From Candidatus Lokiarchaeum ossiferum (GTDB lineage Archaea > Asgardarchaeota > Lokiarchaeia > Sigyniarchaeales > Promethearchaeaceae), in the NCBI GenBank assembly GCA_025839675.1, contig CP104013.1:4590001-4622000 (forward strand): a stretch of 32,000 bases of DNA. The letters are read 5' to 3'. Below, one piece after another: positions 3,156 to 26,086 of the stretch. A program made the position numbers and the translations under genes. Under the pieces are notes generated by a model that ran no database searches, was not told the origin of the DNA, and saw only the letters and a program-made list of their open reading frames with translations. Position 1 is the stretch's first letter. Every line of letters begins with the position of its first letter.

Positions 3156-3406
3156 GAGAGGGTGGTTAATAAATTGGGTATTTGCTATGCAAATTTCACC
3201 TCGTACATTCTATATTAAAATCATTTGCTTACTCTTTATAAAGTCCTAGGTTTAGATGCTTTTCTTGTTTATAATCCAAGTAAGAATTAAATGAACGAAA
3301 TCAAAACATCGATGAAATTCGCATAACCTATTTAAGTAGAAAAAATGAAGATATATTAGAATTCTGTTTTCTGATTGGGTAAAATCAATTGGAATGGCAG
3401 TTTTTT

Positions 3407-3411
3407 GGAGG
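3407..3411 (+). promoter_or_regulatory. Shine-Dalgarno-like GGAGG 8 nt upstream of the histone ATG (3420)
   Basis: GGAGG is read directly at 3407-3411. It supports the 3420 start over the 3375 start given in the ORF track. Confidence 0.5.
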
Positions 3412-3419
3412 ATTTAATC

Positions 3420-3698
3420 ATGGCAAAGAAAAAAGCAGCAGCGAAGAAAAAAGCACCTGCTAAAAAGAAAGTCGTCAAATCGACTTCTGAAAATCGTAGT
3501 TCTTTTATCTCGAAAGCACCAGTACGTCGGTTAATGAAGGGAGAAGGGGCTGGTTTAGTTAGTGATGAAGCAGTCAAGCTACTCATTGAACAACTTGAAA
3601 AAAATGCAATTCAAACCACCAAAAAAGCTTTAACTCTAGTCAAAGATGAAAAGCGAAAACGTTTAACTGCAGAAGATATTACCTGGGCAACCCGATAA
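3420..3698 (+). CDS. Archaeal histone-fold protein with ~33-aa lysine/alanine-rich N-terminal tail
   Basis: The core SKAPVRRLMKGEGAGLVSDEAVKLLIEQLEKNAIQTTKKALTLVKDEKRKRLTAEDITWA aligns by eye to the HMf-type histone fold: DNA-binding Arg near the start, then the 'RK..L.AEDI' end of helix 3. It is preceded by MAKKKAAAKKKAPAKKKVVKSTSENRSS. A GGAGG sits 8 nt upstream of this ATG. Confidence 0.85.
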   Translation: MAKKKAAAKKKAPAKKKVVKSTSENRSSFISKAPVRRLMKGEGAGLVSDEAVKLLIEQLEKNAIQTTKKALTLVKDEKRKRLTAEDITWATR

Positions 3699-5741: not shown

Positions 5742-5839
5742 GTTGAGTTAAAAAAATCTTGTTAAAGATATTAAAGTAGAAAAAATAATAGTATTATGCA
5801 GTAATCATTTTTTATTTGTAAAAGTTGGAGCTCGAATCT

Positions 5840-6382
5840 ATGTCAGAAATCCCTGTTATGAAAGTTTTCTTTGCTGGAGAAGGTGGTGTTGGTAAATCTA
5901 CTATGGTAGAGCGAATTGTGACCGGAATTTTCAACGATAAACTAATCATGACAATTGGGGTGAATCATGCTGTAAAGACCATGAAGACAGATGATGGGAG
6001 AGATGTCACTCTTCAAATCTGGGATATTGGTGGTGAAGATCGGTTTCGATTCGTAGTACAAAGTTATGTAAAAGGGTCATCAGCCGGAGTTATTGCATTT
6101 GATACCACGCGGATGTCCACATATTTGCATCTTACTCATTGGTTAGATATCATTCGAGAAACAATACCCTCAGCGCCATTATTTCTTGTTGGGATGAAAT
6201 CTGATCTTGATACTGCAAATTTAGACAGAGATCAATATAAGGAACTAGTGGAAAAATATCATTTGGAAGAATTAATTTTTACAAGCAGTAAAACTGGAGA
6301 AAATATTGAGGAAACTTTTCAAAAACTTGCAAATTGTTTGCCACAAATTCCTCAGTATTACCGAAAAGCAGAAGAAGCTTAA
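5840..6382 (+). CDS. Rab/Ras-like small GTPase
   Basis: G1 GEGGVGKS; switch-I Thr in MTIGV; G3 WDIGGEDRF; G4 GMKSD; G5 TSSKTG. The overall layout aligns to Rab (TIGV..., LQIWD..., ...RF...YY/YV.G..G.I..FD). GGAG at 5827-5830 lies 9 nt upstream of ATG 5840, which supports that start over TTG 5825. Confidence 0.9.
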   Translation: MSEIPVMKVFFAGEGGVGKSTMVERIVTGIFNDKLIMTIGVNHAVKTMKTDDGRDVTLQIWDIGGEDRFRFVVQSYVKGSSAGVIAFDTTRMSTYLHLTHWLDIIRETIPSAPLFLVGMKSDLDTANLDRDQYKELVEKYHLEELIFTSSKTGENIEETFQKLANCLPQIPQYYRKAEEA

Positions 6383-8051: not shown

Positions 8052-9008
8052 CTATGTTTGAGTTTCGATTTTGTCCAAGTAATTTTGATAAATTTTACGT
8101 TTTGACTCATTTTTTTCATTTTTGACTAAATTTTCTAAAATCTGAAGAATTTCATCTCGAGTGAGTTGGGTAGTGACAAATTTTTTTAATTTCAAATTTT
8201 TCGGATCAGCCAGATATAATTTGAAAAGTATATTTGAAACAGGTTTTCCGATCGCGAGTAATGCTTTAACGGAATGTTCCCGCACTTCATCGTACATATC
8301 ATTTGTTTTTTTGGCTAATTCTGGACCTGCTCGCGGATCTTTCAGTTTTGCTAAAGCTTTGGCAACATCTCTTCTAACATACCAGTATTTATCCATCTTT
8401 AAACGTTCTATTAAGGGTAATACGGCAGATCCATCTCCTATTTTGCCTAATGCGATCGCAGAAGCACATCGTACATCACCATCTGCTTCATCTTCTAATC
8501 CTTTTATTAGGGCTGGAACTCCAGCAGGGTCTTTGATATTTCCAATTGCTTTAATCGCACTAACGATAATATCGCTAAATTTGATTCCTTCTTCTTTCAA
8601 TTTCGCTGAAGCTTCATTTTCTTTTGTATTCGATTGAGCTTTAGGATCACCCACCATGGCATATGATCTTTGATTTGGATCAACCATTTTCATTAGAGAT
8701 GGGATCGCTCGTTTGTCCTTCAATTTTCCTAAACTCCAACAAGCGTTTGCTTTTACATAAGAATCAGGATCTTCTAGAGCTTTATCGAGTGCTTCTAAGA
8801 TGGTGTCAAATTGATCTGGATCTGCGATCTTTCCTAAAGCTCGTGCGGCAGAATTTCTTACTACTGAATCGCTATCGGTTTCAAGTAATTGAATTAAAGT
8901 GGGGATTGCTTCCTTGACTTTTAGATCCCCAATTTTGAAAATACTTTTTTTTTTTTCAGCAAGATCATTTGAATTTAGATTTTTGAGTAACTCTTGAGCT
9001 TCAGACAT
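8052..9008 (-). CDS. HEAT-repeat protein (PBS-lyase HEAT-like repeats)
   Basis: The ~31-aa unit recurs: D..VR..AA.ALG.IGD..A...L. Instances are SVVRNSAARALGKIADP, YVKANACWSLGKLKDKRAIPSL, DVRCASAIALGKIGDGSAVLPLI and YVRRDVAKALAKLKDPRAGPEL. Confidence 0.85.
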   Translation of the reverse strand: MSEAQELLKNLNSNDLAEKKKSIFKIGDLKVKEAIPTLIQLLETDSDSVVRNSAARALGKIADPDQFDTILEALDKALEDPDSYVKANACWSLGKLKDKRAIPSLMKMVDPNQRSYAMVGDPKAQSNTKENEASAKLKEEGIKFSDIIVSAIKAIGNIKDPAGVPALIKGLEDEADGDVRCASAIALGKIGDGSAVLPLIERLKMDKYWYVRRDVAKALAKLKDPRAGPELAKKTNDMYDEVREHSVKALLAIGKPVSNILFKLYLADPKNLKLKKFVTTQLTRDEILQILENLVKNEKNESKRKIYQNYLDKIETQT

Positions 9009-9111: not shown

Positions 9112-9138
9112 AAATAAAATGCATAAACAAAACACTTG

Positions 9139-10218
9139 ATGGGAAAAAAAAAAAATGTTAAAGTGTCTGATTCTTTAGAGGATTTATTTGGAGTGGAATC
9201 AAGTGAAAGAAATGACAATACGGATACGAAAAATCAACCGACTTCAATAAAAGAAAGATTACAACCAAAAAAGACACATGCAGCTACAAAAAAAAGTAAA
9301 TCTCATCGAATGTTAAATATTCCTCAGCTCACTGGAACAGAAATGATTGAATGTCCTCATGAAATCGATTCAGTTTTTATTACTCAAAAAGCCTTTGATG
9401 ATATAATAATGATGGCTCGGGCAATAAACGAAATTAGTCGAGAAAGATGGGGATCTGATTCTCAAAAGTTGGAAGTTTTTTGTTATGTACTCACTAATGA
9501 ATCAGATTTTAAAAATGATTTTCCTGCACGAATTTCGGAAATTTATATCCCTCATCATTCTGCATCTGAGACTGCCGTGAATGTTTCAACTGAAGCAGTA
9601 ATAGAAGTGGGTGAATATATTAAAGAAAATAAAAAAATTTTGCTTGGTTGGGCTCATAGCCACGGACACTTTAAAGTTTATAGTTCTAAAACCGATGAGC
9701 AAAACCATAAAGCATTGTTAAATGATACCTCGAATTATATCACTCTAGGGCACTTTAAGATAAAATATTCTTATGGAATTACTGTTATTGAAGATGGAAC
9801 TCATTTGGGTGTTATTTTGAGTCAATATCCTTGTGGACATATTGGACGAGTTGAAGACACATCCTTTGATATACAAGGGCCTCGATATTCAAGCAAAGAG
9901 AAAGAAAATCGTTATTTGCAAATTAAGGAACAACTGGAAGATCGCGTTGATCTAGTTCGCCCTTCTATTCAACCTTCCCGGGAAGATTCATTGAAAAACA
10001 TTTCTGAAGAATTTGTTTCTGAATATATACGAAACTTAAGGAAAGCGAAAAATTTATTGTATGATAAACTTCCCGACGATATGGACAAACATTTCGAGCT
10101 CTTTCAACGTGTTTTGCAAGAATATGACACACTCCTAATGAGTACTGCTGAGGAAAGTTTTACAAATGTGTCCGAAAAACTTTTGTCGGCGATGAAACAA
10201 TATAATAACAGTATTTAA
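9139..10218 (+). CDS. JAMM/MPN+ domain metalloprotease (Rpn11/AMSH/CSN5-type active site) with disordered N-terminus and helical C-terminal extension
   Basis: Complete JAMM motif: E113 (KLEVFCYVL), then 61 residues later H-S-H-x7-S-x2-D in GWAHSHGHFKVYSSKTDEQNH (nt 9655-9696). Residue numbers follow the track ORF starting at 9136. About 70 N-terminal residues are K/S/T/E-rich. The C-terminal ~120 aa look helical. Confidence 0.8.
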   Translation: MGKKKNVKVSDSLEDLFGVESSERNDNTDTKNQPTSIKERLQPKKTHAATKKSKSHRMLNIPQLTGTEMIECPHEIDSVFITQKAFDDIIMMARAINEISRERWGSDSQKLEVFCYVLTNESDFKNDFPARISEIYIPHHSASETAVNVSTEAVIEVGEYIKENKKILLGWAHSHGHFKVYSSKTDEQNHKALLNDTSNYITLGHFKIKYSYGITVIEDGTHLGVILSQYPCGHIGRVEDTSFDIQGPRYSSKEKENRYLQIKEQLEDRVDLVRPSIQPSREDSLKNISEEFVSEYIRNLRKAKNLLYDKLPDDMDKHFELFQRVLQEYDTLLMSTAEESFTNVSEKLLSAMKQYNNSI

Positions 10219-10310: not shown

Positions 10311-11747
10311 GTGGTCAGAAGGTCTAGTGGTGTAAAATCTATGGTTACTCAAAAAAAATTCTTTAAGTGTAATTCATGTGGTCTGGAACAAAATCTAGAT
10401 CAAAGCGTTCATATCACGTTAAAATATTGTGTTAGCTGTTATAATAAGGAGCAAATTCATCGAGAATCAATGCGAAAGATCAACATGTATATCGCTTTAC
10501 TAAAGGAAAAAAATAAATATTCCAAAATAAGGCGACAAAAAATCCAAGATATTATAAGAATCAATGAACTCATCTTACCCTTGACTATTTTTCAGCTCGA
10601 AGACGGTGAAGTGCTGGATTACTTACATGAATCAAGAAGAAATGCTTTTAAATCTGGATTAAAACAAATCACAGAAAAATATAACCTCTCGTTAAATCCC
10701 GATATTATCACTCATGAATTAATAAACAAGTTGGAACCAATTTGGAAATTTAGACGGGTACCTACTAGCCAAAAACTCGATGAACGTTTATCCCCTTTAG
10801 ATCCGTTTATTGATAAACCCATTAAAGAAAAGCAACTGTTTTTCAAGGATATTAAAAAAGCAATTACAATGCCCTATTTTACCAAAGTGAAAGGAAAATA
10901 CTTAATAAAACAAATGGCACCATTTAAATTCAAAGATTCCTATATTTTAAAGACAATTAAGACATATCGAAAGGCAATAGAGAAAGCCGCGACCCAACCC
11001 GAACAATTCAGACGGTTTTTGAAAGCTCTTGGGATGAATTGTCAATTCCAAACAATTGATGATCGGTTAAAGTTGGGGATTCAAGAGTACGCTAGAGATG
11101 TATCTGAGGATCAAATCAAAATTTTAACAAATCGAATGATCTCTGAAATAGATCAAGCTGAAAATTCCTTCTTAATTCCAAATATTGCGAAGCATATTAT
11201 GGATAATCATGAACGTTTATTTGAAAAATGGTTTTGCTATATTTTACCCTTTGATAAAAGCCGGTTTATGTCTGTTCAAGCAAAAACTGGGAGTCGGACA
11301 GATTTTGTTGTACGACTTCAATATCATTTTAGAAAATATGAGCTAAAAATGATCTATGATGCTCTTTGGGAAAGTTCTGAATATTTAGTTCGTGCAAAAA
11401 CTGAACAAAAATTAGCAAAAATAAAGAAAGATTCATCTCTTGCTCCTGAACAGAAAAAATTGAAAATTGCGAAAGCCCTTGAACGTTTAGAAAAAAATCT
11501 TGCTGCTGATAAATTACAGCAAACTCGGGAACAAAATGCTAAAGGATCCCCAATGGTCGCCCGATTTTTACTTTTGAACTCAGAAAAAGCGTTTAATATG
11601 GTGTTAGATAAAATCATTCGATATCATTATAAGCGATTGAATCTAACAACTCCTGTGAGTTACATCACCAATGTTCTTGAATCTGGTGCCGAAGAAAAGA
11701 AAGGGGAATTAAAAGCTTTTTACATGATTCAATCTCGTGAATGGTAA
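10311..11747 (+). CDS. Hypothetical protein with N-terminal CxxC...CxxC zinc ribbon
   Basis: 478-aa ORF (GTG 10311; alternative ATG 10341). KCNSCGLEQNLDQSVHITLKYCVSCYNKE is a four-Cys zinc-ribbon pattern. The rest is a K/E/I-rich helical sequence with no motif I recognise. Confidence 0.6.
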   Translation: MVRRSSGVKSMVTQKKFFKCNSCGLEQNLDQSVHITLKYCVSCYNKEQIHRESMRKINMYIALLKEKNKYSKIRRQKIQDIIRINELILPLTIFQLEDGEVLDYLHESRRNAFKSGLKQITEKYNLSLNPDIITHELINKLEPIWKFRRVPTSQKLDERLSPLDPFIDKPIKEKQLFFKDIKKAITMPYFTKVKGKYLIKQMAPFKFKDSYILKTIKTYRKAIEKAATQPEQFRRFLKALGMNCQFQTIDDRLKLGIQEYARDVSEDQIKILTNRMISEIDQAENSFLIPNIAKHIMDNHERLFEKWFCYILPFDKSRFMSVQAKTGSRTDFVVRLQYHFRKYELKMIYDALWESSEYLVRAKTEQKLAKIKKDSSLAPEQKKLKIAKALERLEKNLAADKLQQTREQNAKGSPMVARFLLLNSEKAFNMVLDKIIRYHYKRLNLTTPVSYITNVLESGAEEKKGELKAFYMIQSREW

Positions 11748-11830: not shown

Positions 11831-12748
11831 ATGGAAAATATTACTTTTACTGATCATGCTGGTGTTAAAATCACCGCATATAAATGGGTCCCAAAAACTG
11901 GGATAACTCCGAAAGGTCTTATTCAGATTGTTCATGGCATGGCTGAACATGCCTTGCGATATGATTTCTTAGCAGAAGCACTCACAGATGAAGGATTTGT
12001 GGTATATGCTGAAGACCATCGAGGTCACGGGAAAACGATGGAATCGATGGATAAGGCAGGATCTTTGAATCCTGATGGGTGGGATGGTGTTGTCAAAGAT
12101 TTAAAACAATTAAAGGATATAATGGTAAAAGATTATCCTGATTTACCAGTGTTTATGTTTGGCCATAGTTGGGGATCATTTTTAACTCAAGATTTCATCC
12201 AAAAATGGGGTGATGAATTAAAAGGTATTATATTAAGTGGAACTGCAGGAAAACAAGATACTCTTGGCTTATTAATTCTTATTGCTAAGTTACAAGTAAA
12301 ATTGCATGGTTCTGATACTCCTGCCGGATTAATATATAAGTTAGGTGTGGAACCTTTAAATAGAAGATTTGAACCTGCTAAAAGTGCTTCAGCATGGTTA
12401 TCAACTGTGGAAGAAGAAGTTCAGAAATATGATGACGATCCATTATGTGGTTATAGACCTCCAAATGGGTACTACTTGGAGATGGCATATGCTATGAAAC
12501 GTTTATGGAAAAAAGAAAATGAATCCAAGATTCCTAAAAATCTGCCAATTTATATGATCGTGGGTGAACTTGATCCAGTGGGGAATTTTACAAAAAATTT
12601 CATGCCCCTAGTTCATCGCTATCAAAATCAAGGAATTGCAGATGTGAGATACAAAATATATAAAGATGCTCGTCATGAAATTTTGAATGATTATTGTCGT
12701 AAAGAAGTGGTTCAAGACACTGTTAACTGGTTTAATAATCATATGTAA
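11831..12748 (+). CDS. Alpha/beta hydrolase, lysophospholipase / monoacylglycerol-lipase-like
   Basis: HGMAEHALRYDFLAEALTDEGFVVYAEDHRGHGKT (oxyanion HG plus DHRGHG), nucleophile elbow GHSWGS, and distal D...H (GELDPV ... ARHEILND). This is the typical PldB/MGL-type layout. Confidence 0.85.
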   Translation: MENITFTDHAGVKITAYKWVPKTGITPKGLIQIVHGMAEHALRYDFLAEALTDEGFVVYAEDHRGHGKTMESMDKAGSLNPDGWDGVVKDLKQLKDIMVKDYPDLPVFMFGHSWGSFLTQDFIQKWGDELKGIILSGTAGKQDTLGLLILIAKLQVKLHGSDTPAGLIYKLGVEPLNRRFEPAKSASAWLSTVEEEVQKYDDDPLCGYRPPNGYYLEMAYAMKRLWKKENESKIPKNLPIYMIVGELDPVGNFTKNFMPLVHRYQNQGIADVRYKIYKDARHEILNDYCRKEVVQDTVNWFNNHM

Positions 12749-15700
12749 TATTATTTCTGTTTTTCTTTTTTCTTCATTCATTACCCTTTATTCAGAAATT
12801 TTTTATTCAAGATGCTCACAAATAAGCATAGGTATTAAAAACCGAATTTCAAGTTATAAATCATCCATAAATTCGGTTGTTGGTGAAGCAATTTTGGAAA
12901 AAACACAATTTGATCGAAAACAAGAGATACTTTCTGCATCAAAGAATAGGATTGAGCAACAATTGAATGATCTGGAAAAATCTTTGAAAATTCGAGACCA
13001 GAAAATCCATAAATTACAGAAATATCTAAAGGAAAAGCATCGGGAAATTGTGGATACTAAAAAGAAAATCAAAAGTCTTGCTCATATTGAAGAACAATCC
13101 AAAGCTCAAATCGATCAAAATATCGAAATGTTGACTTGGTTGGTGGATTCTGTAGATGGAACAGTAACTGAACTCAAAGCCAATATGATCCTTAACTCTG
13201 AAAATGCGATCTTAGAAAATATTAGTGATTTTCAAAATTATGTGAAAGATCTGGAAGAGATTATGGAACCATTAGGCGAATGTTCTGCAATTTCCAATCA
13301 AAAAGAATTAAACATGATTACAAATTCTATTGCTTCTACTTTGGAACTTTTTTCAGAAAATATTGATCAATCTATTGATTCTATGTCTGAATTAGTCCAA
13401 AAAGCTGCTGTTGCTGCGGTAGACCGTTCTTCGAAAGAATTTGATGGGTTTATTGAGGATATTCATCAAATTTTTGATACTTTTAATAATATCTTGCAAA
13501 AATTAAAACTTTCAAATTCCACCAAAAAATATCTCGCTTTGGAAGAAATTTATATTGAATCTAATTCGCTATTGGGTGAGATGATTGAATTAAAGAAAAA
13601 ATCATCCACTGAAAATGCTCGGAGGCTCTTATTTAAAAAGGATTTAGATATGCTTTCTCAATTTGGATTATCAAAAGATAAAAATAACCTTCGTAAACAA
13701 TTAATCGAAATGCAAAAGACAAAAAGTGAGATTCAAGAAAAATATCATAAAAAGCAAAATATTCGCGAATCACTGGAAGAAAAAGTTGATTTCATTGAAT
13801 CGGAAAAGGAAACTATTCGTACATGGTTTGAAGCCTTAACTGATGAAGTTGTTGATAATCAGGATACTGCAACTGAGACTTATAATATCATGTATGCAAC
13901 TCTTGATTCCATTCATTCTTCTATTTCTTTTATAAAAGCAGATCTTCGAAATACAAGTGAAGCAACTATTCGATCTATCATAGAAGAATTCTCAAAAAGT
14001 GCAAAAGCCTTTGGTCGTATGGTTGCTATTATTAAAAAATTGGATAAAGTTGTCGATCCAAAAAAAAAGCAAAAGTCAATCGAATTAATTTATCAAAAAT
14101 CTAAGTCTCATATCTCCAAAATTAAAAAAATAGTCTCCCGGTTATCAAAAGAAGTTAAAACTGCTAATCAAAAAGCCATCGAAGAATCTTTCATTGATTT
14201 TAATAAGTTCATTGAAGTGTTTAAAAATAAATTCTATGTTATTCAAGATGCTGTTTCTGCAATCACACTTTCAAGTTCCGCCCAATTGATCCATGATTTA
14301 GAAGATTTAAGTGAAAATCAGCTGGAATCTCGCGAAGAATTACAAAACTTAGATCTCATTTTATCTGAGCTTAAAATTCAACTGGATTCCTATGATGAAA
14401 AAATTCAAGGATTTGAAAATGAACTGAAAATCTTCGGACATTCGGATCGAAAACGAAGAAAGGTTTTAGTTATTACAAAATCGGTTTCAGAGGGTGAAAC
14501 ATGGTTAATGCAAGATGTTACATGGAATGTTAAAAATGATGGAATTGTTGCGTTTGAAGATATTCATCTGAACGATCTTGTTGTTCATAGCCACGAATGT
14601 CTCACATCCAATGTGAATTATGATAAAAAGGAATTTAATTCTTCTCATCAATTAATTTCTTGGAACATCGACACTTTGGATAAAAAAGATCATATAGATA
14701 TTCATTGTCTTCGCCAAGGATTTCGCCCTCTTCATAAAAATAACAAAAATTATACGCGAAACATTAGTACCCCTAGGACTTTTCGATATCGGAATCTTGC
14801 CCAACCCATTTCTTTAACATTCATAGAAAGGGAGGGTGAAGGTGCCATGGTTCTTACCAATACTGGTGTAAGTGATACTATTTGGAATATTTCTTTAGAA
14901 TTTAAAGAGACTTCTGAGGTTTCAGATATCCCTAATGTCAAAATTTTTGGTTTAAAACCTCAACAATCATTTATAAAAAAATATTCATATTCTCGAGCTG
15001 GTTCTTTGAAACCCCGCCTTTTTGAAGCTAGTTCCAAATATCTTGTGGGAATTCGGGAGCAGAGATCAATTCGTTCAGAAAATGAATACAGATGTGAACT
15101 TATTTTTGAAAATAAATCTGAATTTCTGCTTCATTTAACCTCATTCGAAGTTTATGATATTAAGAATCCCAAAACGCCCGTCATTCAGGTTAAAGACCAT
15201 CATCTTGAAATATTGCGTCCTAATTTAGATTTTCGCAAAAATTATGATGTTGAAACAGCATTGGACCCTCCTCAATTTGTCATCGACTATTCATTCACTC
15301 TACATCTTGTGTATGAGTATGACACTACTAGCAAAATTGATCTTAGTGAATTGAAAGAAACTCCTGATCTTATTTACAATAAAGATATTTCTGCTGAAGC
15401 TCTCCAAGAGTTTATTCCAAATTTATATAATCAAAAACAAACTTCAATTGAAATACACCCAGAAATACAAATGATTAATGAGGAAATTGATGCTATACGT
15501 GATCAAATAAAATCACTTGAATCCCAGCTCCAAGAACAAACTATAATGCTTGAAAAGAAACAATCTGATAAAGAAAATTTATTGATTCTCATTAAAAAAG
15601 AAATGCAAGAAGAAAAACTTAAAGAAGAAAAGCGCAAGCAAGAAGCAAAAATTCTTGCTCAGAAGCAAGCTGAGGAGCAACAAAAATTACAAATTGAAAA

Positions 15701-16043
15701 AGAAAAAATTGCTGAAATGAAAGCTAAACTGGCCAAGAAAAAGAAAACACTGGCAAAGAAATCTATTAGTGTGAAAAAAGTAGTGGAAAAGGAAATCGCA
15801 CCAAGGAAAGAAGCTGATAAAAAAAAATCTACTACCAAAAAGAAAAAATCTACTACCAAAAAGAAAAAATCTACTACCAAAAAGAAAAAATCTACTACCA
15901 AAAAGAAAAAATCTTCTACTAAAAAGAAAATATCTAAGAAGAAGAAAACCTCAACAAATAAGAAATCAACCAAGAAGAAGAAAACATCGACCAAAAAGAA
16001 ATCAACGCTTAAAAAAAGTAAACAAAAGAAGTTAAAAACTTGA
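12687..16043 (+). CDS. Giant coiled-coil protein: helical rod (~500 aa) + ~300 aa beta-sandwich-like modules + K/E-rich helix + polybasic STTKKKK-repeat tail
   Basis: 1118-aa ORF. Heptad-like E/K/I/L/N/Q sequence spans aa ~75-600. Strand-like alternating patterns span aa ~600-900 (VTWNVKNDGIVAFEDIHLNDLVV; GAMVLTNTGVSDTIWNISLEF; YRCELIFENKSEFLLHLTSFEVYD). Then come KLKEEKRKQEAKILAQKQAEEQQKLQIEKEK and a K/S/T tail. No P-loop or catalytic motif was seen. The start is uncertain: ATG 12687 overlaps the upstream gene by 62 nt, and in-frame TTG 12894 is the alternative. Confidence 0.8.
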   Translation: MIIVVKKWFKTLLTGLIIICNIISVFLFSSFITLYSEIFYSRCSQISIGIKNRISSYKSSINSVVGEAILEKTQFDRKQEILSASKNRIEQQLNDLEKSLKIRDQKIHKLQKYLKEKHREIVDTKKKIKSLAHIEEQSKAQIDQNIEMLTWLVDSVDGTVTELKANMILNSENAILENISDFQNYVKDLEEIMEPLGECSAISNQKELNMITNSIASTLELFSENIDQSIDSMSELVQKAAVAAVDRSSKEFDGFIEDIHQIFDTFNNILQKLKLSNSTKKYLALEEIYIESNSLLGEMIELKKKSSTENARRLLFKKDLDMLSQFGLSKDKNNLRKQLIEMQKTKSEIQEKYHKKQNIRESLEEKVDFIESEKETIRTWFEALTDEVVDNQDTATETYNIMYATLDSIHSSISFIKADLRNTSEATIRSIIEEFSKSAKAFGRMVAIIKKLDKVVDPKKKQKSIELIYQKSKSHISKIKKIVSRLSKEVKTANQKAIEESFIDFNKFIEVFKNKFYVIQDAVSAITLSSSAQLIHDLEDLSENQLESREELQNLDLILSELKIQLDSYDEKIQGFENELKIFGHSDRKRRKVLVITKSVSEGETWLMQDVTWNVKNDGIVAFEDIHLNDLVVHSHECLTSNVNYDKKEFNSSHQLISWNIDTLDKKDHIDIHCLRQGFRPLHKNNKNYTRNISTPRTFRYRNLAQPISLTFIEREGEGAMVLTNTGVSDTIWNISLEFKETSEVSDIPNVKIFGLKPQQSFIKKYSYSRAGSLKPRLFEASSKYLVGIREQRSIRSENEYRCELIFENKSEFLLHLTSFEVYDIKNPKTPVIQVKDHHLEILRPNLDFRKNYDVETALDPPQFVIDYSFTLHLVYEYDTTSKIDLSELKETPDLIYNKDISAEALQEFIPNLYNQKQTSIEIHPEIQMINEEIDAIRDQIKSLESQLQEQTIMLEKKQSDKENLLILIKKEMQEEKLKEEKRKQEAKILAQKQAEEQQKLQIEKEKIAEMKAKLAKKKKTLAKKSISVKKVVEKEIAPRKEADKKKSTTKKKKSTTKKKKSTTKKKKSTTKKKKSSTKKKISKKKKTSTNKKSTKKKKTSTKKKSTLKKSKQKKLKT
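15828..15932 (+). repeat. In-frame 21-bp tandem repeat (4 identical copies + 1 degenerate) encoding STTKKKK
   Basis: tctactaccaaaaagaaaaaa begins at 15828, 15849, 15870 and 15891 with 100% identity. A degenerate copy (tcttctactaaaaagaaaata) begins at 15912. Further K/S/T-rich decay continues to ~16040. Confidence 0.95.
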
Positions 16044-21608: not shown

Positions 21609-23039
21609 TTATTCTGCTAAATAACCATAGCCTATTAAACGAAATCGATTATGAATCCTACGACTTAACGCAACAATTGATCCTCCAAGTGCACAGATTG
21701 GACGTTTCAATTGAAGACTCACGGAATTATGTTTTCCAATTTTAGAAACAACTCCAGCTGAAAGGGAAGTTCCAACAACAATCATGATTAACTCATTTTT
21801 CGCTATTGGTTTAACACTAATATCCTCTTCTGCTCCTAATACTTTTTCTAATAAGTGAGTTTCAATCTCTACGGTATTTTTTACTTCAGGAAGGGTTTCA
21901 GGTGTTCCAACAACATTTCCAATAAGCTGATCTGTTCGAGTATTGGATGGATCTAATTCAGTTCCAATAGCAATTAGACCTCCTGGACGTGCAGTCTCAA
22001 GTGAATGTTTTCCTTCATAAATACTTTTAACAGTCGTAATTACAGGTTTATATTTTCCACTGTCCGGATTTTTTAACCCAGGACGAATTTCGACTTGATC
22101 CCCAACTGAGATTTGACCTGAGATGATACTTCCTCCCATCACACCTCCAGCGAGATCATCAATCGAAATTCCTGGGCGATTAATATCAAAACTTCGGGCT
22201 ACGTTGAAAAGGAAATCTTCTTCATTTAGATCTTCAAAATCAGGAGATGGTATTATTTCTTCGATTAATTCGGAAATTTTATCAACATTAGCTTGGAAAA
22301 TAGCTGAAGTTGGAATTATTGGTGCATTTTCAGCTATGGTGCCTTTGACGAAACTTTTAATTTGATTGTAATGTTCTATAGCACGTTCTTTTCCTACAGA
22401 ATCTACTTTGTTTTGAACAATTATAATATTTTCAATTTTAGCAATTTCTAGGGCTGCCAAATGTTCTCTTGTTTGAGGTTGGGGGCAATCTTCATTCGCT
22501 GCAACTAACAATACGGCTCCATCCATAAGTGAAGCGCCTGATAACATCGTTGCCATCAAAATTTCGTGTCCAGGGGCATCAACAAAACTAATTCGACGTT
22601 TAAATGCTAATTTTTCGCCACAATCAGGACAATGCCCTTTTGGATCTTTTTTGCTTTTTCGGAGCAAATTAGCGAGTGCTTCAGCAATCACTCGATTGCA
22701 CTTAGGACATTGCATAACTGCAGCTTCAGCATACCCTAATTTAATAGTAATTCCACGATTTATCTCATCAGCATATTTTTCTGTCCAAGTTCCGGAAAGG
22801 GCTTTAACTAAGGTTGTTTTTCCATGGTCAACATGGCCGACCAACCCTACGTTACAAGATGATTGAATGAAATCTGATTTTTTAGAAGATTTTTTAGTTG
22901 TTTTTTTCTTTGTTGTGGTTTTTTTCTTTGAAGTTTTCTTCTTAGCAGTTGTTTTTTTCTTTTTTTCTTCGGGAACGACACCTAAGTCTTCTGCTGAAAG
23001 ATCATCTTCGGCTACTGTTTTTTTCTTTTTCTTTGCCAT
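21609..23039 (-). CDS. eif2g: Translation initiation factor aIF2 gamma subunit with ~57-aa lysine-rich N-terminal extension
   Basis: GHVDHGKTTL (G1), DAPGHE (G3), NKVD (G4), and the zinc knuckle CPKC...CPDC inserted in the G domain. Domains II/III run to ...RLIGYGYL. The N-terminus is MAKKKKKTVAEDDLSAEDLGVVPEEKKKKTTAKKKTSKKKTTTKKKTTKKSSKKS. No alternative in-frame start exists before the G1 motif. Confidence 0.95.
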   Translation of the reverse strand: MAKKKKKTVAEDDLSAEDLGVVPEEKKKKTTAKKKTSKKKTTTKKKTTKKSSKKSDFIQSSCNVGLVGHVDHGKTTLVKALSGTWTEKYADEINRGITIKLGYAEAAVMQCPKCNRVIAEALANLLRKSKKDPKGHCPDCGEKLAFKRRISFVDAPGHEILMATMLSGASLMDGAVLLVAANEDCPQPQTREHLAALEIAKIENIIIVQNKVDSVGKERAIEHYNQIKSFVKGTIAENAPIIPTSAIFQANVDKISELIEEIIPSPDFEDLNEEDFLFNVARSFDINRPGISIDDLAGGVMGGSIISGQISVGDQVEIRPGLKNPDSGKYKPVITTVKSIYEGKHSLETARPGGLIAIGTELDPSNTRTDQLIGNVVGTPETLPEVKNTVEIETHLLEKVLGAEEDISVKPIAKNELIMIVVGTSLSAGVVSKIGKHNSVSLQLKRPICALGGSIVALSRRIHNRFRLIGYGYLAE

Positions 23040-23176: not shown

Positions 23177-26086
23177 GTGAAATGTATGCCACAAAGCAAT
23201 AAGGATGTTATTTCTGAACTATTTGATGATATAGACAATCAAATTTCTTCAAAACAATATGATAAAGCAGTTGATTTAATTGGTTCTTTATTAATGGAAC
23301 ATGTTTTTCATAAAAGTGAGAAATTCTTAGCCAAATGTTTGGAATTAATTAATATCATTTGTGATAAAACAAATTATACTGTCGATACTATCACCGAATT
23401 TATCGCACCATTATTAGATCATGAGGAATATTGGGTTCGACAAGATGTTCTTGGCATACTAAAAAAAATATATCCTTCGGTTTCCCTAGGCAAGTTTGAT
23501 TCTCTAATTGAAAAATGTGAAGCTAAATTATTTGATCCTGATAAGAAAGTCCGAGAAATAGCAGTATCTTTAGTTGCTACTATTATTAAGAAATCATATA
23601 CTGATTATCCCGATATTTATTTGACATATTGTCGTATGTTTGATGATGACTCTTGGAAAGTTCGTGCTAAATCGTTGGAAGGAGTATTAGAATTTTTAAC
23701 TCCTGAGTCAAATCCTCCTGTTGATTTAATCAATGCACTCAAGGAAAACTTGACCCATTTATTTAAAGATCCTGATGAAGAAATTCGAGGATTTGCTTCC
23801 GAAGTGATGAAAGCATTATGTTTTCATATGGAATCTGATGAGATTATTACGATTTTGCAACCAATTCTTGAGGATGATGATTGGGAAATCCGAGAAAAGG
23901 GTATTTGGATAATTGGAGAGATTGGTTATCTTTATTTCAGTGAATTTGAGGTATTATTTAATATAATGATATCGCTATTTTCTGATCAAATCATGATGAT
24001 CCAGACAAAGGTGATTGATGCTTTTGTTAAGATTGGAAAAACTCAAAGTAAAAATCTATTTCGCTTGTTTTTGGATTATTTATCCAGTATATGTAATATA
24101 GCTGAATGTAAAGATCAAGAAGATGGAATTTCGGAAACATTAATTTTCATTTCTCTTCAAAATATGAAAAAATTGCTTCCTATTCTAATCATTGAATTAC
24201 AAAACCCAATACAAATCATCCGTGATATCATTGCGAATTGTTTATTAAAAATATATATGGAAAAACCCGACGCTTTCGAAGAAGAACTCTATAAAATGTT
24301 TCAAGGCTTAGATCCTGAAGATTGGCGTCAACGAAAGCAACATATTAGTTTGGTGGGAGATTTAGCTTATATTTTACATATTCAATCTGTAGCAATATGG
24401 ACTGCAATCAATTTAAAAAACTGGCAATCTCTAGAAAAGGATTTGGATGTATTAGATGAGATAGAAAATTCGTTGTCTAAAATTAAGAATGTATATGAGA
24501 ATATTGATACTGAAATACAAGAAGTTGAAAAGCGAAAAATTTCCTTTTATAAAGGATTAGACAAATTCCAATCCCTTTCTACAAATCTTCGAGGAAAAAC
24601 CGAGCAGCTTATTATCAAGAAGAAATTTAATGATGCGGAGGTTCTCTTGGAAGAAGAAGGAAATAGAATTTCCGAAAAACTCAACGAATTTGAAAAGATC
24701 TTGTATGAATCCGAGTTTAAGCGTTTTTCTGTCGATATTTTGCAAGATTTCAAAGAAATTAAAGAAGAGATCTTGGAAAATATCTCTGATATTAAGGCTG
24801 TTATGTTCAATCAAATATGTGATGGACGTGCGGAATATTTAGAAGATCTTCAGGATGTTGTAAAAAATATTGAAGAATCTATTTTAGATGTTAAAAATGA
24901 TTATCAATTTGTTTTGAACTTAGAAAAGAAAATTGAGAACTTAGATTATCAAAATGACCCCTCCAAGATTGAATCCTTTCTAGATCGCATTTCCCATATT
25001 AGAGAGAAGTTGTACACCTTGGAATTCAAGATTGGACAAACTTGGTTAAATAATTTGGAATTTAAAGAATTTCTAAAAGAAGTGACAATATATTGGGTTG
25101 ATGTAAAAATTGAGGTTCAGCAGTATATTGGCAACATTTTCCAGAAGTTTAATTTATTACAATCTGAAATCGATGGGACCAATGGAGAATATTCCGATCT
25201 GAAGCGTAAAATTACCTTCAATTTTCTCAATTCAAACTTACAAAATATTATTTTGCAAGCTGTGCAGAGCCAACGGGATGTGCTTGAACGATTTGATTCT
25301 ATTACTGAGCCGATATACCAAGAAATTAAAAAACGAAGGTTTAAAGAAGCTCATCATCTGGTATCTCTTACCATCAATAATTTATATAATACAATTGAAA
25401 ATTACAATAAAGAAATTAACCATATTTATAATGATTTAGATAAAATTAATCTTTCAGCGGAAGCGTTAGCTGAAGTGCGAAATTATGTGAATAATTGGGC
25501 TGATGTAAAAGATTCACTTATTGAAAAAATTCGATCTTTCCAAAAAGAAGTTGAAGACGAATTGTTTATTCAAGAAGTTCGCGAGTATTTGAAATATATG
25601 AATCCGATTCCATTGGATCGTCTAGAGAAAGCCCTTTCAATACAAAAGAAGCATTTGAAGGATCGCTTATTTGCTTTAATCGAAGATCGTACTCTCCATG
25701 CAGAAATTCACAATGAAGAATTAATCATACCTGAACGTCCTTTAGGTGAAAATCTGTTGTCTTTCTCCCGTAAGGTTGAGATTATTGGTTCAAGAATAAC
25801 ATTTAATCTACGTATTTATAACCCTACCAAGTTTTTCCTCAATGATATGGGATTGATCTTCATTTTTCCAGAGTTTTTAAACCTTCAAAAGGAAGACAGC
25901 GATTTAACTGAGATTTTTATTCGGGAATTTGAACCAGAAGCAATCAGAGTCATACAGTGGAATTTTCGTTTGGAAAAACAAAATGAAAAGAAGTACGAAG
26001 TCAAAAAATGGTTGTTAAATGTGTCTTACCGCAACCCCTTCGATGAGATAACAACATTCCAGAAAGAGATGGAAATTATTTTTTAA
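23177..26086 (+). CDS. Large HEAT-solenoid / helical-rod / winged-helix-like / beta-sandwich protein
   Basis: 969 aa (GTG 23177 or ATG 23186). HEAT-type repeats: EEYWVRQDVLGILKKIYP, DPDKKVREIAVSLVATIIKK, DDDSWKVRAKSLEGVLEFL, DPDEEIRGFASEVMKAL, DDDWEIREKGIWIIGEIG. E/K/I/N-rich helical rod spans aa ~400-790. PIPLDRLEKALSIQKKHLKDRLFALIEDRTLHAEIHNEELII spans nt ~25568-25732. Strand-like C-terminus: RITFNLRIYNPTKFFLNDMGLIFIF, AIRVIQWNFRL, WLLNVSYRN. Confidence 0.85.
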   Translation: MKCMPQSNKDVISELFDDIDNQISSKQYDKAVDLIGSLLMEHVFHKSEKFLAKCLELINIICDKTNYTVDTITEFIAPLLDHEEYWVRQDVLGILKKIYPSVSLGKFDSLIEKCEAKLFDPDKKVREIAVSLVATIIKKSYTDYPDIYLTYCRMFDDDSWKVRAKSLEGVLEFLTPESNPPVDLINALKENLTHLFKDPDEEIRGFASEVMKALCFHMESDEIITILQPILEDDDWEIREKGIWIIGEIGYLYFSEFEVLFNIMISLFSDQIMMIQTKVIDAFVKIGKTQSKNLFRLFLDYLSSICNIAECKDQEDGISETLIFISLQNMKKLLPILIIELQNPIQIIRDIIANCLLKIYMEKPDAFEEELYKMFQGLDPEDWRQRKQHISLVGDLAYILHIQSVAIWTAINLKNWQSLEKDLDVLDEIENSLSKIKNVYENIDTEIQEVEKRKISFYKGLDKFQSLSTNLRGKTEQLIIKKKFNDAEVLLEEEGNRISEKLNEFEKILYESEFKRFSVDILQDFKEIKEEILENISDIKAVMFNQICDGRAEYLEDLQDVVKNIEESILDVKNDYQFVLNLEKKIENLDYQNDPSKIESFLDRISHIREKLYTLEFKIGQTWLNNLEFKEFLKEVTIYWVDVKIEVQQYIGNIFQKFNLLQSEIDGTNGEYSDLKRKITFNFLNSNLQNIILQAVQSQRDVLERFDSITEPIYQEIKKRRFKEAHHLVSLTINNLYNTIENYNKEINHIYNDLDKINLSAEALAEVRNYVNNWADVKDSLIEKIRSFQKEVEDELFIQEVREYLKYMNPIPLDRLEKALSIQKKHLKDRLFALIEDRTLHAEIHNEELIIPERPLGENLLSFSRKVEIIGSRITFNLRIYNPTKFFLNDMGLIFIFPEFLNLQKEDSDLTEIFIREFEPEAIRVIQWNFRLEKQNEKKYEVKKWLLNVSYRNPFDEITTFQKEMEIIF

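Follow-up and report, generated by a model that had tools for sequence, protein, structure and literature searches.

The DNA analyzed here is a stretch of 32,000 nucleotides (nt) from Candidatus Lokiarchaeum ossiferum (contig CP104013.1 of assembly GCA_025839675.1, forward-strand positions 4,590,001 to 4,622,000), called the window below, and the gene under study lies in it as an open reading frame (ORF) of 1118 amino acids (aa) at 12687-16043 (+). The product is deposited as a "hypothetical protein" in two forms, UYP47664.1 (locus tag NEF87_003949; 1118 aa) in GenBank and WP_457917187.1 (1049 aa) in RefSeq, and its alignments mark it as a conserved, uncharacterized protein of L. ossiferum. 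The comparisons reported below identify it as derived in part from SMC proteins, yet no SMC itself. Residue numbers throughout are those of the 1049-aa coding sequence (CDS) and nucleotide positions those of the window; P00nn denotes the proteins and L0nn the DNA loci used for comparison.

The 1118-aa ORF named in an initial annotation of this DNA is present in the window, but the first 69 codons almost certainly remain untranslated, and the CDS is the 1049-aa form that begins at TTG 12894 (Table 1), which is also the start called by RefSeq. The 5' extension overlaps the upstream alpha/beta-hydrolase gene by 62 nt, and there is no in-frame ATG, GTG or TTG between the ATG at 12687 and the TTG at 12894. 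In the 52% identical orthologue of L001, GGTGA stands 5 nt before the equivalent TTG and the arrangement GGTGA...TTG GAA AAA AC is kept, with the upstream extension absent; in the 90% identical orthologue of L004, the frame is broken by two indels (6 nt and 2 nt) that lie after the hydrolase stop and before the TTG, and the sequences are identical from GGTGA on. The orthologues P0002 and P0003 start with MEKT and MEKN, respectively. The transmembrane (TM)-like segment is confined to the extension, where the Kyte-Doolittle mean over 19 residues reaches 2.47 against a maximum of 1.01 in the 1049-aa CDS, and no such stretch was found in the orthologues by the same measure. As this stretch falls outside the real CDS, the 1049-aa protein is predicted to be soluble and cytoplasmic, with no N-terminal or other membrane anchor. 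In the otherwise indel-ridden intergenic DNA, a 27-nt block, TTATTCAGAAATTTTTTATTCAAGATG, is perfectly kept between the window (12790-12830) and L004 (5950-5990); it lies ~70-100 nt upstream of the TTG start and may be a promoter (B-recognition element/TATA) or regulatory element.

Table 1. Features of the target gene and of its conserved neighbours in the window.
Feature	Position (nt)	Strand	Description	Basis
Target CDS	12894..16043	+	1049 aa + stop, TTG start; NEF87_003949 / WP_457917187.1, "hypothetical protein"	Orthologues, RefSeq
5' extension, probably spurious	12687..12893	+	69 codons including TM-like stretch; hydrolase 3' end plus intergenic/promoter DNA	
GGTGA	12882..12886	+	Shine-Dalgarno-like, spacing 7 nt to TTG start	Sequence; L001, L004
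Helical unit 1	12894..13667	+	aa 1-258; helix 5-132, turn at conserved P-L-G region, helices 136-203 and 207-257	AlphaFold2 model
Module 1	13143..13559	+	aa 84-222; SMC-apex-like; motif AV..SS.EFD.FI.DI..IF..FN..LQKLKL.NS.	phmmer, hidden Markov model, alignment
Helical unit 2	13668..14429	+	aa 259-512; helix 263-385, turn at D-P region, helices 389-455 and 459-515	AlphaFold2 model
Module 2	13902..14318	+	aa 337-475; internal duplicate of module 1	hhalign
Basic junction	14448..14462	+	aa 519-523, R-K-R-R-K, between helical part and beta-sandwich 1	Conservation
Beta-sandwich 1	14463..14720	+	aa 524-609; WNVKNDGIVAFEDIHLNDLVV as beta-hairpin	AlphaFold2 strands E17-102, block pLDDT 81-95
Beta-sandwich 2	14808..15065	+	aa 639-724; MVLTNTGVSDTIWNISLEF as beta-hairpin	AlphaFold2 strands E132-217, pLDDT about 94-97
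Beta-sandwich 3	15084..15320	+	aa 731-809; ELIFENKSEFLLHLTSFEVYD as beta-hairpin; conserved DPP motif	AlphaFold2 strands E224-302
C-terminal helix-type segment	15450..15737	+	aa 853-948; heptad-like periodicity first, then E/K/Q-rich, single-alpha-helix-like	Helicity inferred from sequence
Polybasic K/S/T tail	15738..16040	+	aa 949-1049, 101 aa	Composition
Tandem repeat	15822..15936	+	21-nt unit, 5.5 copies, encodes (KKKKSTT)n	Tandem Repeats Finder
HEAT protein	8052..9008	-	Divergent orientation, same conserved block	Synteny
JAB/MPN-like protein	9136..10218	+	Intact JAMM motif HSHGHFKVYSSKTD, long helical C-terminal extension	Sequence
478-aa protein	10311..11747	+	N-terminal CxxC...CxxC ribbon	Sequence

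A HMMER (phmmer) search against 1.84 billion representative proteins returned 33 relatives of the target. About 10 of them are complete or almost so (24-90% identity, 824-1179 aa), and in all of these the helical part is followed by the beta part, a short coiled coil and the basic tail, in this order. Orthologues were also found in L001, a GTDB genome (52% identity), and, frameshifted, in the metagenome contig L002 (38%). In a second closed L. ossiferum genome, the gene is intact with 98% identity and differs by exactly one 7-aa KKKKSTT unit (a deletion in P0063). The suspicion that the gene might be a fusion or an assembly artefact is laid to rest by its integrity in two closed genomes and by the ~10 orthologues of the same architecture. 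Judged from the sources of these relatives, the family is known so far only from Asgard archaea, the named ones being Lokiarchaeum and 'Promethearchaeota'. When the whole ORF was scanned against Pfam at E <= 0.1, the sole match was a sub-threshold one to MtrB, and sequence and profile searches of NCBIfam, PADLOC and PDB returned nothing meaningful for the target. A word-index protein search, of poor recall here, gave 0 matches for the beta region and 3 for the module alignment, though the protein and its 90% relative are both in the collection. A literature search on the locus tag NEF87_003949 found no mention, and neither the supplements to the Nature paper on L. ossiferum nor those of a 2026 preprint on Asgard chromatin contain it.

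The N-terminal ~500 aa had been described as coiled-coil-type sequence, and their helical character is borne out by AlphaFold2 (AF2), which, with a 15-sequence alignment, modelled residues 5-515 as all-alpha (mean predicted local distance difference test score, pLDDT, 85.8; predicted TM-score, pTM, 0.60). By profile comparison, this ~512-aa "rod" is a tandem duplication of a helical unit of ~250 aa, the profiles of module 1 and module 2 matching in hhalign with a probability of 97.2% and an E-value of 2.9e-11 over 139 columns. In the AF2 model each unit consists of one helix of ~125 residues, then two helices jointly of equal length, and the helices are broken at 133-135, 204-206, 258-262, 386-388 and 456-458. 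Only two prolines occur in aa 1-520, namely P126 and P389, each beside the first predicted turn of its unit. Since the helices break at conserved turns and the chain folds back, a bundle of ~19 nm is expected instead of an extended rod of ~75 nm, both lengths being arithmetic from the predicted helix lengths. Hydrophobic periodicity of 3.5 residues was weak except in aa 29-84 and aa 841-896, by a crude scan that is only weakly informative. A PDB profile search with the helical part gave nothing meaningful and no intermediate filament (IF) protein, and Foldseek against PDB returned generic long-helix matches only (TM <0.25). In the basic motif that follows, K520-R521-R522-K523 is invariant between the window and L001 and retained in most orthologues.

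A relationship of this helical part was found with the proteins P0021, P0023 and P0024 (1464-1483 aa), whose centre (about aa 612-965) was matched by phmmer at E-values of 6e-7 to 2e-6 against the 1.84 billion proteins. The aligned span covers about 350 aa, comprising the ~140-aa module and flanking coiled coil; the alignment is colinear, with gaps at the apex loop only, and invariant S, F-D, D and L positions. At the centre of these proteins, a hidden Markov model of module 1 scored independent E-values of 2.6e-20 to 6e-26, whereas elsewhere in their arms the best was 2e-4 and most were 0.04 or worse, and this within-protein control argues against coiled-coil bias. These alignments establish homology between the helical unit and the middle of Asgard SMCs, the region that replaces the hinge. 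The target itself has no SMC_N or AAA match in Pfam and only a weak, arm-type match to NCBIfam TIGR02168 (E 2.9e-4, 18.7 bits, cutoff 567).

P0021 is a genuine SMC, with 618 bits to TIGR02168 against the cutoff of 567 and with heads scoring 408 bits against the Pyrococcus Smc head. The SMC genes lie at L007 8001-12452 (P0021), L008 2778-7229 and L009 8001-12425, are annotated as 'AAA family ATPase [Promethearchaeota archaeon]' and, in L007 and L008, are followed two genes downstream by a ScpB gene. No SMC_hinge match was found by Pfam in the target or in P0021, P0023 and P0024, the PDB matches of these three are confined to heads and arms, and reading the SMC sequence revealed no glycine-rich hinge. 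The hinge position is taken instead by ~460 aa of extra coiled coil and the ~140-aa helical module. Proteins of ASRP/ClsN type carry a zinc hook (PMC9389158); no zinc hook or CxxC was seen on reading the sequence of P0021. A literature search found no description of hinge-less Asgard SMCs. As the module replaces the hinge in the SMC centre, it lies where the SMC arms turn back and two SMC chains must meet. The AF2 helices of the target (5-132/136-257 and 263-385/389-515), with their conserved turns, are compatible with such an SMC-like antiparallel fold-back. The module is borne by fragments and further architectures as well. P0026, P0030 and P0033, from an organism of higher G+C, have coiled coil on both sides of the same module and end in a tail rich in Ala, Pro and Lys, of H1-like type (569 aa), and P0026, of otherwise unrelated architecture, represents an independent pairing of the module with an A/P/K-rich basic tail.

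Downstream of the basic junction, AF2 (13-sequence alignment) predicted three tandem beta-sandwiches of immunoglobulin-like (Ig-like) type with a pLDDT of 85.4 and a pTM of 0.83. The three beta segments quoted in the initial annotation for this ~300-aa region were modelled as strand-turn-strand hairpins, one per domain (model residues 37-57, 145-163 and 228-248), so the beta-sandwich prediction stands, but the literal pattern given for them fits segment 1 only, segment 2 needing a 4-residue loop and segment 3 lacking the D/N. The core h-x-h-x-N-x-[GST] occurs once per beta domain (shuffle P = 0.013), and its Asn is conserved in the family. A further conserved motif, NIS..F.YR..A.P..L at aa 623-641, covers the linker before beta-sandwich 2 and extends into its first strand. 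Foldseek of the beta model against PDB gave no match at E <= 1e-3 and generic ones otherwise (TM <0.25), the best being transglutaminase beta-barrels, pilus chaperones and AglB; against the BFVD viral models, a DUF11 repeat protein was the single match below 1e-3. Ig-like repeats of the DUF11/CARDB type typically show the v-x-v-x-N-x-G hairpin. No DUF11 or CARDB match was found in the target by Pfam, and no PDB match to the beta-region profile.

The same pattern had been noticed in the C-terminus of a 969-aa protein of the window (23177-26086, +; 100% identical to NEF87_003957, 966 aa in NCBI), and the recurrence is real, with an exact match at aa 878 that, together with segment 1, forms the only two exact matches among the 22 window proteins. 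A shared module, which had been proposed from it, is not supported: hhalign of the target family (12-15 sequences) against the 969-aa family (23) gave probabilities of <=1.7% for the C-terminus with each of the beta domains and <1% when the helical parts were compared, and BLASTP between the two proteins gave nothing, although the hhalign test is low in power, as the target's own three beta domains do not detect each other. The resemblance between the two proteins is at most at the level of fold class. The 969-aa protein has N-terminal HEAT repeats, a helical middle of ~400 aa, a weak PCI-like match at aa 790-847 and a conserved, beta-rich C-terminal domain of ~110 aa, in which a Y-N-P-T turn is invariant in the family; of the 26 homologues detected, every one with a named source comes from Asgard archaea.

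After a poorly conserved linker, the target ends in a helix-type segment and a polybasic tail, both as first described, the tail being ~100 aa instead of ~80. The helix-type segment is found in all orthologues with a length of 39-95 aa, and its start falls within the weak 3.5-residue periodicity of aa 841-896. The tail contains 49.5% K, 30.7% S+T and 4% acidic residues, with a net charge of +47, and is presumably disordered. The tails of the orthologues are all net positive (+6 to +81; 23-53% K; 23-226 aa), and their sequence drifts freely. The two L. ossiferum genomes differ by one copy of the 21-nt repeat, and the tail length is therefore evolutionarily labile. The only other acid-free, K-rich low-complexity segments in the window belong to a tailed histone and to aIF2-gamma, both nucleic-acid-associated. 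The histone-fold protein (3375-3698, +) has a lysine/alanine-rich N-terminal tail, MAKKKAAAKKKAPAKKK, with an internal ATG that may be the true start, and resembles the 'tailed' HLoB type of the 2026 Asgard chromatin preprint (10.64898/2026.07.02.735847). aIF2-gamma (21609-23039, -) carries a K/T/S-rich N-terminal extension of ~55 aa, KKKKTTAKKKTSKKKTTTKKKTTKKSSKK, similar in composition to the target tail.

The target belongs to a block of HEAT (divergent), JAB-like, 478-aa zinc-ribbon and target genes that was found in four genomes, that of the window and those of L004, L001 and L012 (target identity 90, 52 and 38%, respectively). The JAB-like/478-aa gene pair lies at 7329-9844 in L001, 7273-9894 in L012 and 2495-4932 in L004. 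For these two proteins, nothing was found above threshold in Pfam and nothing in NCBIfam, PADLOC and PDB; a defence-system reading was dropped, the PADLOC, NCBIfam and PDB searches being empty for the target, the JAB-like protein and the 478-aa protein alike. In the L. ossiferum lineage only (window and L004), the target and the 478-aa gene are separated by an alpha/beta-hydrolase gene (Hydrolase_4; 11831-12748, +). It is missing at the equivalent position in L001 and L012, so it is regarded as having been inserted into the conserved block in this lineage. In L004, the target is closely followed by a second hydrolase gene that has no counterpart in the window. Genes for small GTPases of the Ras/Arf family occur near the target locus (window 5825-6382, +; L001 315-872) and near an SMC locus (L007 5464-6420), and this proximity at both loci probably only reflects how numerous such GTPases are in Asgard genomes. 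No kleisin or ScpB gene was found beside the target in the window gene list or by the Pfam scan. The window, of ~32% G+C, also encodes a Hef helicase-nuclease, CdhD and, as read from the translation, an AlaRS-like ORF; together with the histone, the Ras-family GTPase and aIF2-gamma, this content is as expected for an Asgard archaeon.

The target is interpreted here, tentatively, as an SMC-arm-derived oligomeric scaffold or tether of the nucleoid whose tail would bind a polyanion, most likely DNA, and as no lamin homologue. The helical modules would probably be association surfaces, for self-assembly or for docking onto the SMC apex, because the homologous module occupies the meeting point of two SMC chains, and the tandem pair may mimic the apex dimer. 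The C-terminal coiled coil would add predicted oligomerization, and the Ig-like domains could serve as spacers or partner-binding modules. The disordered, polybasic tail would bind its polyanion electrostatically, most probably nucleoid DNA, by analogy with tails of the histone H1 type; DNA is suggested by the relationship to SMCs, by the H1-like composition and by the nucleic-acid-associated proteins that bear such tails elsewhere in the window. The whole protein may then act as an architectural or tethering factor of the nucleoid. The initial annotation had left the choice between a filament, a tether and a scaffold binding nucleic acid or membrane; of this, all findings can be reconciled with an elongated scaffold whose basic tail binds polyanions, and the IF-type rod and the terminal anchor are not retained.

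Several points weigh against the nucleoid interpretation. No DNA-binding fold was found in the target, Ig-like repeats are unusual among chromatin proteins, and K-rich low-complexity tails are common in the lineage, for example in the HEAT proteins of L001, so that the tail may be less specific than it seems. The SMC link is drawn from three SMCs of other loci (P0021, P0023 and P0024), and coiled-coil composition can inflate similarity, though the within-SMC control speaks otherwise. The helical model reaches a pTM of 0.60 only, and two hairpins, three-helix bundles or a four-helix rod are all compatible with it. The HEAT, JAB-like and zinc-ribbon neighbours are uninformative on chromatin, and the order of the block is not conserved in L003, L010 and L011.

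An unlikely alternative, though the best placed of the rivals, is a membrane-associated tether, in which the polybasic tail would bind anionic lipids peripherally and the rod and Ig domains would project into the cytoplasm, for a partner or for protrusions. The +47 tail is set off from the body by a charged helix, a layout common among peripheral membrane tethers, and Ras-family GTPase and HEAT-repeat proteins are encoded nearby. The suggestive TM segment, however, lies outside the real protein, so the terminally anchored tether proposed from the 1118-aa frame loses its anchor, and neither hydrophobic residues nor an amphipathic or lipidation motif is present in the tail. SMC proteins, moreover, are the module's only detectable relatives.

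A cytoskeletal protein of the lamin/IF type, whose helical part would dimerize in parallel and form filaments decorated by Ig domains and the basic tail, had been suggested by the lamin plan seen in the ORF and is now given little credence. The order of helical part, short conserved basic KRRK, Ig-like domain and tail recalls lamins, long helices are predicted at high confidence, and L. ossiferum has an elaborate cytoskeleton (PMC9834061). Against these stand the Pfam scan, which found neither Filament (PF00038) nor the lamin-tail domain LTD (PF00932) in the whole ORF, and Foldseek, which placed no lamin or IF chain among the best 50 PDB matches listed for either model. The helical part is a duplicate with conserved turns, folded back and SMC-related, instead of an uninterrupted heptad rod; three beta-sandwiches replace one, and there is no CaaX. 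The resemblance to the lamin plan is thus one of outline only.

A role as component or substrate of a JAMM (deubiquitinase-like) pathway, together with the JAB-like and 478-aa zinc-ribbon proteins, is compatible with the other readings and is itself improbable to a similar degree. It would fit the gene order kept in four genomes down to 38% target identity and the intact JAMM motif, and the lysine-rich tail might supply many acceptor lysines; however, the synteny is absent from three other lineages, in the L. ossiferum lineage an inserted hydrolase gene separates the target from the 478-aa gene, no genes for a ubiquitin-like protein (Ubl), E1 or E2 lie within the window, and the neighbours have no characterized relatives. 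An RNA- or ribosome-associated scaffold, whose K/S/T tail would bind rRNA or mRNA instead of DNA, is a poor candidate too. In its favour, the K/T/S-rich extension of aIF2-gamma is the most similar tail in the window, but the target has no RNA-binding domain, its kinship with SMCs points to DNA, and translation genes show no linkage to it across the orthologues.

The more specific form of the nucleoid interpretation, an Asgard-specific, SMC-derived tether whose two modules dock on or copolymerize with the apex of hinge-less SMCs while the H1-like tail holds DNA, is speculative and has a slim chance of being right in full. If the docking and DNA reading were true, the closest relatives of eukaryotes in culture would possess a chromatin scaffold built of coiled coil and Ig domains, a functional analogue and not a homologue of the lamina or of a condensin anchor. 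Ca. L. ossiferum is among the very few cultured Asgard archaea, and its large, conserved, lineage-specific proteins are therefore candidates for novelties of cell architecture related to eukaryogenesis. The target is now precisely described and tied by homology to chromosome-organizing SMCs, two tempting labels (lamin-like and arrestin-like) have been removed, and the gene start has been corrected. The bona fide SMCs near ScpB, with the hinge replaced by a helical module, may outweigh the target in importance for archaeal chromosome biology.

Compared with known systems, the tandem beta-sandwiches recall arrestin and Vps26, a parallel that had been drawn at the outset and that is not supported: the target has three domains against two lobes, and arrestin and Vps26 are absent among the best 50 Foldseek PDB matches listed, the best matches being generic multi-Ig proteins and, among the viral models, a DUF11 repeat protein. 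With the Ig-like repeats of prokaryotic DUF11/CARDB surface proteins, the domains share beta-sandwiches bearing the v-x-v-x-N-x-G hairpin signature; they differ in giving no Pfam match and, as the target has no signal peptide or TM segment, in being predicted cytoplasmic domains. With lamins and IF proteins the target shares the outline of a helical N-terminal part, short basic motif, Ig-like sandwich and tail, and possibly contact with chromatin; it differs in having no sequence or fold match, duplicated and folded-back helices, three generic or DUF11-like sandwiches and a long polybasic tail in place of a CaaX end. The short basic KRRK at the junction of rod and Ig domain resembles the position of the lamin nuclear localization signal, but the motif is unspecific and an archaeon has no nuclear import.

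Lysine-rich tails of the H1 kind are found in the C-terminal domain of histone H1, in Chlamydia Hc1 and at the C-terminus of mycobacterial HupB. The target tail resembles them in being a long, acid-poor low-complexity sequence of K/S/T(/A/P) type with a very high net charge, conserved in composition and not in sequence. It differs in that the target has no winged-helix or HU globular domain and carries the tail on a structured body of ~950 aa, and DNA binding is here a prediction by analogy. From the hinge-less Asgard SMCs, the target differs in having no ABC ATPase heads, in carrying the module twice in tandem and then three Ig-like domains and a basic tail, and in having no kleisin or ScpB gene adjoining it. 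With these SMCs it shares the homologous ~140-aa helical module with flanking coiled coil and long helices predicted to fold back like the tip of an SMC arm. The individual parts of the target are ordinary fold types; their combination and the SMC-apex origin are new.

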